Shown here: positions 3,721 to 59,924 of the stretch, piece by piece
Numbering within the stretch: position 1 is the first letter of the stretch
How the letters are laid out: every line of letters begins with the position of its first letter
Assembly: GCA_964016885.1 (NCBI GenBank)
Contig: OZ024759.1
Span: 15,872,001 to 15,936,000, forward strand
Source: Eledone cirrhosa
Lineage: Eukaryota
Length of the DNA stretch: 64,000 nucleotides
Direction: 5' to 3'
The notes under the pieces: generated by a model
Databases searched by the model: none
The model's input: only the letters and a program-made list of their open reading frames with translations
What the model was told of the DNA's origin: nothing
Program-made: the position numbers and the translations under genes

Positions 3721-4708
3721 GTGAACGTAAAGGGTCATAATACCATGCCGCAAAGCATGGCGTCCGACCCTCTACCGATAATGAAGAAATGTGTTTGTTT
3801 GTTTCGCAATTGATAGAATTAATTTTTTTTTTTTTTCAAAAGCGATAAAAAATTTAATTCCTACCTGTTAATATCCAAGTTTCTCACAGTAACATTAACT
3901 CCGTGTTGCTTTGGTTGGTAAGAATATCCGAAACTAGATTTGGGCGAGGCCAAGTCACGTGCAACGACGACAGCCAATAATAATTTCCAGCTTAGACCAA
4001 CAATTTTGAAGAGGTGGAAGTCGGTTCAATCCACATAAGTTTTTGACAGGTAAAGTTATTTTCGACAGGATTTCAATTTCTTCTTGTGTATGAGTTGGTC
4101 TGTGGTTGGTGTCGTTCGCCTGGAAGAGATCAGATATCAGTGATAAGTTTCCAGGGCCCATCACGACGAGGTCGACAAACGTGGGCCCCAGGATATGAAT
4201 TCAGAACGTTAAGAGCTGGAACAAATATCGTTTCTGATTTAGACACAAGGCCAATAATTTTTGGGGAGGGGAAAGTCAATTAAATAGCATCCCAGTGCAT
4301 TACAGATACTTCATTTTATCGACCCCCGTAAGGATGAAAGGCAAAGTTAACCTCGGCGGGATTAACTTTGCCTTTCATCCTTACGGGATTTGTCCTAAAT
4401 AATAAAAACATGTTAATTTACACAATATAAGTTGTTTTTATACCTCCATGGTCGAACGTATCTATGGATAAAACCCTTTAACTCCTGACCAACTGGTATT
4501 TTCAAACATAATTCATATCCCGCTATACAACTCAGTATGTCATTTCTTTTAAGATTCGGCTGTTATATCTAACAGGTCTGGAGTCCCTATTCCACAACAG
4601 TCAATACATCGTTTCCGATAATAATTTGTTTCACCTCAAACGGATCATCAAACTCCTCCTATGGACTGAGTGCTCTACTACTACGGATATAACCCTCCAG
4701 CGTTCTAC

Positions 4709-4743
<35 letters not shown>

Positions 4744-11570: not shown

Positions 11571-11635
11571 TATTTTGTCTGATGAAAGCACACCATAATT
11601 TAACATGGTATCCTTGAAATATGTATAATAAAATA
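11571..11635 (+). ncRNA. Type I hammerhead ribozyme, family A
   Basis: Stem I tattttgt/ataaaata, CUGAUGA, stem II aag..accat/atggt..ctt, GAAA, stem III ata/tat, AUA triplet. Confidence 0.7.
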
Positions 11636-54838: not shown

Positions 54839-55369
54839 TATTTATGTATTTATTCATTTCCAAAGGCCGATTTTTTATTCTATAACTATATTATTTATTA
54901 TCAGGTTGTTTTCAAATCCAGAGAAACGTGCACGTCATATGTATGTGTACATGATTGAATAAATATTTTATTGTACTGTGCTCATCTATTAAGAAATGGG
55001 GGGATGGCTATGTGGTTGAAGGTATTGGTGGATTTCGGATTGGGTGAATGCTTGAAAGCACGGATGGCAGAAAGGATAAATGGAATGATGAACGGACCTA
55101 TTACATATATATAAAAACAATGATGAACGGACCTATTATATATATATTCAAAACAAAAAGCAGCGGAGGACGCGTTTCGCACCTGTCCGACAGACAACCT
55201 TTCCCCCACCCCGGAAAAACCCCCAGTTGATGGATGTGAATCCGAAATAAATATATATATATATAAATCAGGAAATAAGAGTGACACGGTTTGCTATACA
55301 AAAGAGGTTTTTAATCTCATTGCTGACAATTGTATCTCTGAACTGGTAGGTCTAGAGATCGCTACCAGC

Positions 55370-55585
55370 TTGGGGAGAGTCATATTGTTATAATATTGCC
55401 AGAAATAATAACAGAACACACTCACTGTTTGGTTGGTTTTGGCTTCTGTATCTTTTATATCTCCAAACAGTGAGTGTGTTCTGTTCTTATTTCTGGCAAT
55501 ATTATAACAATATGACTCTCCCCAAGTATAACAATATTTGTTTCGTCACACGATTTCATATCAAAAACCTTGCAAAACAAATATA
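55370..55585. mobile_element. Fold-back remnant of the family B terminus
   Basis: 55370-55432 and 55463-55526 are inverted repeats of the family B 3' end. Confidence 0.8.
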
Positions 55586-56077
55586 TATATATATATACAT
55601 ATACATATACATATATATATACATACATATACGCATATATACATATATATATATATATATACATACATATACGCATATATACATATATATATATACATAT
55701 ATATATATACATATATATAGACATACATATATATACATCGATATGTATATACATATTTATACATATATATACGCATATATACATATATAAAAATACATAT
55801 ATACATATACATATATATACATATACATTTATACATATATATATACATATACATATATATACATATGTATATATATACATATATACATATATACATATAT
55901 ATATATATAAATATATATATATATATGCACACATATATATATATATACGTGTATATATACGTGTTTATATATAAATATATACATACATATTTATGTACAT
56001 ATACATTTACATACATATACATATATATAATCGTATATATATACGCACATATATATATATATAAACATGTATCTCTT

Positions 56078-57981: not shown

Positions 57982-58023
57982 TAAATATATAGAAGTAGTT
58001 CCACAACAGTTGATTCGATATTT

Positions 58024-58064
58024 CCGAGAACAATTGTTTCACGTTATTCGGATCATCAGCTCGG
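58024..58064 (-). ncRNA. Type I minimal hammerhead, family D
   Basis: Minus strand ccgag-ctgatga-tccgaataacgt-gaa-acaattgt-t-ctcgg; stem II is weak in this copy. Confidence 0.65.
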
Positions 58065-58250
58065 TTTAAACCATTGTTCACGGTAATGGTGAACTAACTG
58101 TTGTGAAGCTATTTCTAACAAACTCGTCCCATGGTCTGAGTGCTCTACTACAACGGATATATTCCACCAGTGTTCTACTATTATATATATGTGTGTGTAT
58201 ATATATGTGTGTGTATATATATGTGTGTGTATATATATGTGTGTGTATAT

Positions 58251-58379: not shown

Positions 58380-58799
58380 TGTTTTAAGAAAACCCACTGT
58401 ACTAATAGGAAATGTATCATATGTAAGGTAAACTCCCGGATAAACTGTAAAACTAGAAATGTAGTCTATAGCATAAGATGTACAGAGGGTACTTGCAGAA
58501 ACATGACAACAACATACATAAGCGAGACAGCTCGTAGCATAGGTGAAAGGATAGACCAACACTGGGGGGAACTGAAAGGACGAAAAGACGGTTCAGTACT
58601 ATACGAACATGCCAGACAACAACACGACGGTAACATAGACAACATAGACATTAGAATATCTAAACATAGAAATGACCCAGCAGATAGGCAAATCAGAGAG
58701 GCCAGTGAAATAGAACTTAGAAGGCCAAGGCTAAACAGAAAGAATGAATGGAATAACAACAACACCCAAACAAACAACACTGACCTAAGAGAAGTATAA
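58380..58799 (+). pseudogene. Penelope-like element GIY-YIG endonuclease C-terminal remnant
   Basis: Read in frame from 58380: CFKKTHCTNRKCIICKVNSRINCKTRNVVYSIRCTEGTCRNMTTTYISETARSIGERIDQH..LYEHA..RQIREASEI..RPRLNR. VVY..YIS stands for GIY-YIG, with an upstream Cys cluster. Confidence 0.88.
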
Positions 58800-59055
58800 A
58801 TAAATAAATAGATAAATAAATAAATAAATACATACACAAGCACAATAACAACAAACACATATAAACACACACTAGTAAAGAGTGTATACATTAACCAATA
58901 CACAGTCACCCAATCACGAACACACATCAAACAAAACACTATACACACACGCAAACGCATGCGCAAAGAAGACAGAATAAAATAAACAAATAAATAAATA
59001 TATAAACAGACTAAATAAAGATGGCGTAGAAAATACAATGCAACGGGAGGAAACA

Positions 59056-59109
59056 ATAGCACCACTGACGATGTTGCAGATGTGCAACGAAAGAACTTTG
59101 ATAAACTAT
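59056..59109 (+). ncRNA. Type I hammerhead, family B
   Basis: atag..ca-ctgacga-t-gttgca gatg tgcaac-gaa-ag aa ct-t-tg..ctat. Confidence 0.7.
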
Positions 59110-59303
59110 ATATATGTGTTTGTGTCAATATTGTATCTGTATTATTTTTTACCGTTGGTCAGTCAATGGCAACATTGAGGACCGAATAAATTAGATTACC
59201 GATATAAAAGACACAGAAGCGAAAAGCGAAAACCAACCAAACAGTGAGTGTGTTCTGTTATTAATTCTGACAATATTACACAAATATGACCCTCCCCAAG
59301 TAT

Positions 59304-59349
<46 letters not shown>

Positions 59350-59507
59350 ATACTTTGGAAGTGTCATGTTGCCAAAACAAACACACACACACCTATTAGG
59401 TTTTTTTATTGGCAACATGACCCTCCCAAAGCATAACAATATCTGTTTCAACACACGTTTTCAGATAAAAAATCTCGCAAAACAAATTCAAAAACGAATT
59501 ATATATA

Positions 59508-59552
<45 letters not shown>

Positions 59553-59703
59553 CGTTTCTGAATTTGTTTAGCAAGATTCTTTATCTGAAAACGTGTGTTG
59601 AAACCGATATTGTTATGCTTTGGAAGGGCCATGTTGCCAATAAGAAACAAGATGGCGTAGGACAGAACAAAGGAGAGGCACAAAAACAAAGAAAAGAATC
59701 CCA

Positions 59704-59746
59704 GTCACTGAAGAGGTCACAGAATGTGTGACGAAAGAACTTGGAC
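59704..59746 (+). ncRNA. Type I hammerhead, family C
   Basis: gtca-ctgaaga-g-gtcaca gaatg tgtgac-gaa-ag aa ct-t-ggac. The 36.7 kb copy has tgac here, which completes stem I. Confidence 0.72.
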
Positions 59747-59892
59747 AATATATGAACAATCGTCTGGTTGTGGAACCAACCACCCAACCGGAAATTTATA
59801 AATTATTAAATTTATAAATTTAATTTATAATAAATTGAAGTGAAAGCAACTGGTGCGAGTTTCTTATTGGCAACATGACCCTCCCAAAGCAT

Positions 59893-59924
<32 letters not shown>

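Follow-up and report, generated by a model that had tools for sequence, protein, structure and literature searches.

Three dead Penelope-like insertions in one (TA)n tract of Eledone cirrhosa and the element families behind them

The stretch between positions 58380 and 59900 of the window analysed here (64,000 nt of Eledone cirrhosa contig OZ024759.1, to which all plain positions below refer) combines the remnant of a GIY-YIG endonuclease (EN) gene with two hammerhead motifs and several nested fold-backs, which raises the question of what kind of element left this arrangement behind and how it was inserted. An initial annotation had taken it as a link between dispersed non-coding families and an autonomous Penelope element with a Neptune-like linker. 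The letters reported there were all recovered in place, i.e., the EN frame (58383-58799), aagatggcgtag at 59018 and 59649, and the copies of a terminus at 59286, 59417, and 59875. The region is real and clearly resolved, and shows Penelope biology of a known kind. A single (TA)n tract holds three dead tail-end insertions, of which one belongs to a Penelope-like element (PLE) family termed B and two are fold-backs of a family termed C (Table 1). The EN copy of family B is truncated at its 5' side, shows YIS in place of YIG, and lacks one residue. The reading which we regard as fairly probable is that these are 5'-truncated insertions of two sister autonomous PLE families, each with a pseudo-LTR carrying a YY1 motif, a hammerhead, and the ORF start, and that they arose by a double nick of the (TA)n target and the copying of one RNA twice from two internal sites.

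Table 1. Features of the studied region, given as window positions.
Feature	Position	Strand	Remark
End of family B ORF, truncated at its 5' side, with Cys linker and GIY-YIG endonuclease (CCHH present)	58383..58799	+	dead copy
Family B 3' UTR/pseudo-LTR, ending at short end (+26 from ATG) into (TA)n	58800..59311	+	
AAGATGGCG motif of family B, YY1-consensus match; putative promoter-positioning site	59018..59026	+	
Minimal type I hammerhead B	59063..59100	+	predicted cut after 59098
Family B start codon and first codons (MTLPKYNN), 'shared terminus' of the initial annotation	59286..59311	+	
Small family C fold-back: short end of minus arm at 59342; plus arm has its ATG at 59417 and a tail reaching +86	59342..59502	.	
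Second family C insertion, inverted arm with tail	59547..59647	-	
Second family C insertion, main arm: start just above YY1-like site, short end into (TA)n	59648..59900	+	
AAGATGGCG YY1-consensus site of family C	59649..59657	+	
Minimal type I hammerhead C	59704..59746	+	predicted cut after 59742
Family C start codon and first codons	59875..59900	+	

A search of the genome (3.0 Gb) with the EN peptide of family B returned 32,284 candidates, the best 150 scored of which are 95-100% identical to the query, and the corresponding search with the EN of family C gave at least 150 scored matches in the same identity range. Family B frames reach 1119 amino acids and comprise an Asn-rich stretch, a reverse transcriptase (RT) domain with YSRYVDD, a Cys linker, and the GIY-YIG domain; the family C frame spans 1167 amino acids with RT, linker, and EN. 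The EN domains of both families contain CCHH, with two Cys between VVY and YIG and the His pair after them. An unbroken frame from the ATG to the EN stop was found in none of the B and C copies translated. Pfam gave no match for the family B fragment or the 1119-aa frame and a weak RVT_1 match for family C (E 0.0009), and sequence searches of the PDB returned weak RT matches only. The best named protein relative comes from Octopus vulgaris (68%), and a repeat annotation of octopus mentions 31 recently active Penelope-like families without detail in the part concerned (PMC13282606). An Asn-rich insert of about 150 amino acids or more precedes the RT in both families (L031:4100-4550; L161), with differing sequences, and rotifer Penelope elements are described as having N-rich inserts as well (PMC3846280).

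Hammerhead B was found within 700 nt downstream of the family B EN in 28 of 30 loci, including the window copy, and hammerhead C in none of them; one of the two remaining loci has a deletion inside the motif, and the other has no element end. The proposal that an autonomous Penelope carries family B as its 3' repeat is therefore borne out by these 28 loci, and the opposite outcome, family B missing downstream of the ORF, did not occur. Family C had been regarded as a non-coding family of the same element, but is the pseudo-LTR of a second autonomous family with its own 1167-aa frame, hammerhead C lying downstream of the family C EN in 19 of 20 loci and hammerhead B in none. The two proteins share 66% amino-acid identity over 787 codons, at a nucleotide identity of 83% at second codon positions and 55% at 193 fourfold sites. 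As judged from these sequences, B and C are sister families, each of them autonomous. The exact terminus words occur 25,459 times (C) and 11,408 times (B) in the genome, with no hit for the reversed controls, and 29 termini in 1.0 Mb chosen by position extrapolate to about 87,000 genome-wide; most B and C copies carry no ORF sequence. A head-to-tail array of 4147-nt family B units, 4145 of 4147 positions being identical, together with an inverted tailed arm, was seen at L281-L282, its units sharing a frame break at codon 552. A classification of B and C as retrozymes, i.e., non-coding tandem hammerhead monomers, was rejected, since each family has an ORF of its own and the tandem units measure about 4.1 kb.

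The terminus described as shared is indeed present in B and C, but is coding sequence, namely the ATG and the codons directly after it in each of the two ORFs. Reading stays open for 924 and 928 amino acids from the terminus ATG in tandem copies, the N-termini of B and C are 46% identical over 240 amino acids, and several database relatives align from residues 3-11 onwards. PLE pseudo-LTRs have been described as taking in the first ORF codons, to which the tail adds more (PMC3846280). No stable conserved fold was detected at the ORF start (z 0.25 and 0.07). The longest invariant runs of each family (56 and 66 nt) lie directly upstream of the ATG and are candidates for a protein-binding or splice signal.

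A survey of 273 termini in 1.79 Mb of loci distinguished short ends (+26), tails, and 12 tandem read-throughs, the tails ending mostly at +84 and at +69 to +71 in family B and at +86 in family C. Inverted pairs, taken as outward pairs without a TA run between the arms, combine one short with one tailed end in 70 of 72 cases (binomial p 1e-18), one of the two exceptions being a tail with an internal deletion, and the same rule was read by eye in seven further outward pairs from other loci. Adjacent outward pairs never mix B and C (0 of 76). Among the 44 pairs sharing at least 120 nt, the two arms differ by 1.7% from each other versus 5.2% from other copies, the value being lower between arms in 41 pairs; such near-identity is compatible with one RNA and with two RNAs of one source alike. 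The main insertion ends coincide with TA steps (TAT or CTA).

According to the mechanism which we favour, an element protein would nick both strands of a (TA)n target, and one RNA would be copied twice, from two internal start sites within the first 90 bases of the ORF. Either a single RNA or RNAs from the same source would serve as template for the primings at +26 and +84/+86, and the two copies would be joined head to head. Given the transcription start proposed below, priming close to the mRNA 5' end would account for the many fold-backs consisting of the pseudo-LTR only. For the PAc element, two internal RT start sites flanking the tail have been observed in vitro, together with a hammerhead that is protein-assisted and dispensable (PMC11167929). 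The main competing explanation assumes a single priming, after which self-priming or template switching and resolution by the endonuclease would generate the inverted arm and the one-sided tail. It likewise predicts near-identical arms and one tail, the ends at TA steps suit nuclease cuts as well as priming, and both of its ingredients have been put forward before, EN-mediated resolution as the source of the tail in PMC8557442 and self-priming in PMC3846280. However, a simple fold-back copy should always leave the same class of arm as the shorter one, whereas the tail arm is longer in 27 pairs and shorter in 39, and the insertion spans mostly lie near the sum of both arms, which renders this explanation rather improbable. 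TA tracts left by one insertion serve again as targets, as in the window and at L293:4943-5154, where a small C fold-back comes after a family B end within one and the same (TA)n.

In 5 of 241 arms, A-to-G changes are clustered on the sense strand; these arms stem from four insertions, all of family C (both arms of L193, and L165, L042, and L053). They amount to up to 42 such changes versus 6 others, and no arm shows a cluster of the mirror classes T-to-C, G-to-A, or C-to-T. The clustered arms look like retrotransposed ADAR-edited RNA. The twin A-to-G-rich arms of L193 were discarded as proof of a single edited RNA, because they share other rare changes too.

The two hammerheads were examined for their sequence, fold, and variation. 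CUGANGA is present at 59065 with C as N7 and at 59708 with A, and is followed by one extra base in each case; this base had been reported as the same, which applies to its position, but not to its letter (U in B, G in C). The reported difference in stem II, gttgca/tgcaac in B versus gtcaca/tgtgac in C, was confirmed as two changed pairs with both sides altered each, and gaaagaactt was located at 59089 and 59733, which yields the predicted cuts listed in Table 1. A descriptor of the strict core plus a 6-bp stem II matched twice in the window and not once in 100 first-order Markov simulations, and Rfam returned no match at gathering scores for the whole window. The folding z-scores of both motifs are weak (-1.08 and -0.84), the minimum-energy fold of family B does not form the hammerhead, and stem I comprises 4-5 bp in C and 2 firm pairs in B. 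The window copy of family C has a private G at 59743, which breaks the closing pair of stem I, the position being T in nearly all contigs from three of four sequencing runs.

Selection on the hammerhead structure, as proposed in the initial annotation, is supported by several observations at sequence level. All 11 positions of the catalytic core are equal in B and C at an identity of 55% at fourfold sites, for which a chance of about 0.001 follows by arithmetic. Among 109 B and 131 C copies, changes at subfamily level are confined to the loops, to position 17, which is U or A, and to a single pair in which G-C became G.U, and those in stem III preserve the 15.2-16.2 pair. A hand tally of stem II pairs 3/4 in the first 100 of 1630 matches to older B copies gave C-G/A-U 11 times, C-G/G.U 4 times, C-G/G-C once, U.G/G-C 5 times, and U-A/G-C 69 times; thus, 90 of 100 copies lie on a fully paired path, and 10 have one mismatch. 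These states form an uninterrupted series of paired intermediates that leads from the C-like state to that of B. Against selection, however, it counts that each wobble state is one A-to-G change away from an end state, and that the covariation is based on two changed pairs between two lineages. In family C, variation is lower in the paired and core columns than elsewhere in the pseudo-LTR (0 of 33 versus 35 of 188, p 0.002; p 0.04 for substitutions only), but the corresponding values of family B are not significantly lower (1 of 29 versus 30 of 230, p 0.11), and the invariant runs next to the ATG are longer.

Of 38 B and 51 C arms chosen regardless of length, only one in each family has its 5' end within 6 nt of the predicted cut, so predicted cleavage does not set the insertion ends; 24 of these B and 25 of these C arms run through the whole motif. 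In the favoured reading, the hammerhead would be kept by selection while cutting weakly and needing a partner copy or the element protein, and may act at a step other than template definition, e.g., in the processing of tandem transcripts. An unlikely further explanation is that a hammerhead dimer holds two RNAs together, so that each target strand receives one template. Minimal hammerheads have been proposed to act as dimers (PMC4209133), and the preserved 15.2-16.2 pair of stem III is in line with this, but the stem III duplexes are weak (+1.4, 0.0, and -1.7 kcal/mol), one B variant self-pairing with G.U and the window variant leaving two A.A mismatches. Moreover, many arms are too short to show the hammerhead, the two arms of a pair resemble each other more than they resemble other copies, and a dimer alone does not predict the asymmetry of 70 of 72 pairs.

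Some further repeats of the window deserve mention. A different family of hammerheads, in which stem I is longer and stem III is of the TATGTATA type, occurs at 11579 and 25964 (+), and also at L031:376, L034:9466, L076, and L078:1253, with no ORF linked to it. Decayed hammerhead-like cores and a ACAATTGT palindrome characterize another repeat family ending in (TA)n, copies of which are located at ~58000-58180 (-), i.e., just upstream of the studied region, and at 16290-16420, 20680-20815, and 4590-4740. Older B-type and C-type copies are present at 20819-21093, 25267-25552, 46371-46723, 45763-45842, 55369-55631, and 36636-37030, some of the B-type ones carrying a C-like stem II.

The 5' ends of the arms point to a different site. 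The motif aagatggcg fits the YY1 consensus CGCCATNTT (PMC1904287) on the opposite strand, and its family C version is identical to the motif described as opening mammalian L1 elements (PMC5381506). Its free position varies between A and G at subfamily level in both B and C, and the fixed positions do not vary. Among 100 C arms with the YY1 word, obtained by pairing the first 100 listed places per search, 33 lack both words located 63 and 126 nt upstream, compared to about 7 expected from mutation alone, and arms stopping in the 48 nt below the YY1 word account for about 3 in 100 by arithmetic. For family B, the upstream word was listed for 64 of 100 arms versus 55 of 59 long arms, a baseline that is unmatched for this family. 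Nine of 21 C junctions were placed 11-15 nt above the motif, BLAST having overextended at least one of them, both arms end above it in three C insertions, and the second C copy of the window begins just above it as well. Genome-wide word counts (18,036; 11,550; 10,093; 10,075), scaled by match rates, did not single out the step at the YY1 word, because the sampled loci overestimated the match rate of this word (0.73 versus 36/66). We infer that transcription starts a few to about 30 bases above the YY1-like site, and that priming close to the mRNA 5' end gave rise to the fold-backs with the pseudo-LTR only. The sequence above the site is AC-rich and of low complexity, and could attract junctions through microhomology.

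It is very unlikely that such microhomology accounts for the pile-up without any promoter and that the hammerhead is a relic which has lost its catalytic activity and serves as a protein-binding hairpin only. The low-complexity sequence, the weak folding with just 2 firm stem I pairs in B, and the missing footprint of the cut site in the insertion ends would suit such a relic, but not the retention of 11 of 11 catalytic-core positions with only U or A at position 17 at subfamily level, nor the A/G variation of the motif in B and C at precisely the position that the YY1 consensus leaves free. Least credible and largely refuted is a mobilisation of B and C in trans as non-autonomous retrozyme-like families via hammerhead-cut circular RNA, since each family has its own ORF, the 5' ends lie off the cut site in the numbers given above, and the tandem units seen are full 4.1-kb elements, even if most copies lack ORF sequence and retrozymes are described as deriving from Penelope pseudo-LTRs (bioRxiv 10.64898/2026.07.22.740005).

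Families B and C share with the C-terminal EN+ PLEs one ORF with RT and GIY-YIG domains, CCHH, a telomerase-like RT, pseudo-LTRs, partial tandems, an inverted arm, and a one-sided tail, but not the lack of an RT-fingers insertion that applies to the named canonical clades. All 69 aligned sequences, i.e., B, C, and 67 of 120 listed relatives, contain an insert of about 70 amino acids between RT motifs 3 and 4, at the position of the telomerase IFD, and the Asp of motif 3 is separated from the Gln of motif 4 by a distance of 124-133 in each of them. In the alignment rows counted by hand, this distance is 57-60 for Penelope, C. remanei, and Danio Neptune, 84 for Naiad, and about 115 for human TERT. 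The insert contains conserved words and was modelled with a block pLDDT of 82-97. The RT model as a whole (pLDDT 87.6) has telomerases as its best structural matches (Z 16.6, rmsd 3.6, 262 aligned), which occupy the top 11 VIA rows and the top 3 Foldseek rows. Canonical PLEs are stated to lack the IFD (PMC8557442), and GGAIG, GPIG, and ELGLY gave no match in the supplement text of that paper, in which long runs are cut.

The linker of B and C reads C-x4-CxxC-x7-C, and the spacer is 6-10 in those 27 of the 69 rows that matched the pattern. The Neptune-like linker of the initial annotation did not stand up to this comparison, as the spacer is 7 in B and C versus about 25 amino acids in the Neptune rows, and the label was dropped accordingly. 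The spacing is of the Nematis type: B and C have the short CX2-5CxxC linker of this clade and agree with the C-x4/5-CxxC-x7-C before the GIY motif in the Nematis rows of Fig. S2 in PMC8557442. However, their RT motif 3-4 region differs from the two nematode rows compared, which read GLAMG and lack the insert in Fig. S1 of the same paper. An assignment to Hydra was rejected, because this clade has DKT and a CxCX5C linker and lacks CCHH, whereas CCHH is present here and DKSG is found in 57 of 78 sequences; the combination of CCHH and DKS excludes the Hydra clade. A quick tree with 41 unlabelled rows assigned no clade. The extra insert of about 70 residues likely marks an unnamed PLE branch, and Repbase may already list such elements as Penelope or Neptune.

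Many of the traits seen in B and C have counterparts in known systems. The canonical C-terminal EN+ PLEs (Penelope/Poseidon, Neptune, and Nematis; Craig et al., 2021, PMC8557442; Arkhipova et al., 2013, PMC3846280) are described in these papers with a single RT and GIY-YIG ORF with CCHH, pseudo-LTRs including the first ORF codons, partial tandems, an inverted 5'-truncated arm, a one-ended tail, an N-rich insert, and (TA)n targeting with a Cys linker. Families B and C differ from them by their insert of about 70 residues between motifs 3 and 4 of the RT (124-133 versus 57-60 from D to Q), by DKS and GxxIG motifs, and by a main tail of 58-60 nt versus 30-40, with a near-absolute one-tail rule. 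The minimal hammerheads of metazoan PLEs (Cervera and De la Pena, 2014, PMC4209133) have in common with those of B and C the type I core, the additional base at 9/10.1, a long stem II, and a stem I that is short; their stem III is likewise tiny and is self-complementary, and they form families with compensatory changes, mostly as single motifs on truncated copies. Compared to the motifs presented in that paper, family B adds a stepwise stem II path through G.U states among its genomic copies, and stem III of B and C has a 2-nt loop and is only partly palindromic. PAc, the Poseidon element of Anolis carolinensis (Frangieh et al., 2024, PMC11167929), resembles B and C in that insertions end inside the ORF start, two sites flank the tail, and there is no sign of hammerhead cleavage defining the template, uncut RNA being the template in PAc. 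In contrast to PAc, the ends of B and C coincide with TA steps matching (TA)n, each of the two sites is used by one arm, and the hammerhead, instead of overlapping the ATG, precedes it by 170-220 nt. Mammalian L1 elements share a CAAGATGGCG motif a few bases inside the 5' boundary (PMC5381506), but belong to another retrotransposon class, and the function of the motif in B and C is deduced solely from where copies end.

Minimal hammerheads, inverted arms, one-sided tails, and TA targeting are thus already described for PLEs. Targeted searches of the openly accessible literature yielded no description of families B and C, of the fingers insert in a C-terminal-EN lineage, of a near-absolute end rule with one template per insertion, or of a YY1-like site in Penelope elements with 5' ends above it. 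We tentatively suggest, with more doubt than confidence, that B and C represent an unnamed widespread C-terminal-EN PLE clade with an IFD-like fingers insert, a YY1-fixed start as in L1, and twin priming on one RNA, of which tens of thousands of fold-backs would record the start, the priming sites, and the stepwise evolution of the hammerhead.

The inverted repeats and one-sided tails of PLEs and the role of their hammerheads are open questions in the field (PMC8557442, PMC11167929), for which the young and very abundant families B and C provide sharp, testable rules: one end lies at +26 and the other at +84/+86, each insertion uses one template, and the 5' ends gather at a candidate promoter instead of the predicted ribozyme cut. 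The RT insert is also relevant to the possible ancestry of the telomerase IFD in Penelope RTs, since clades with a C-terminal EN had been regarded as lacking this domain.
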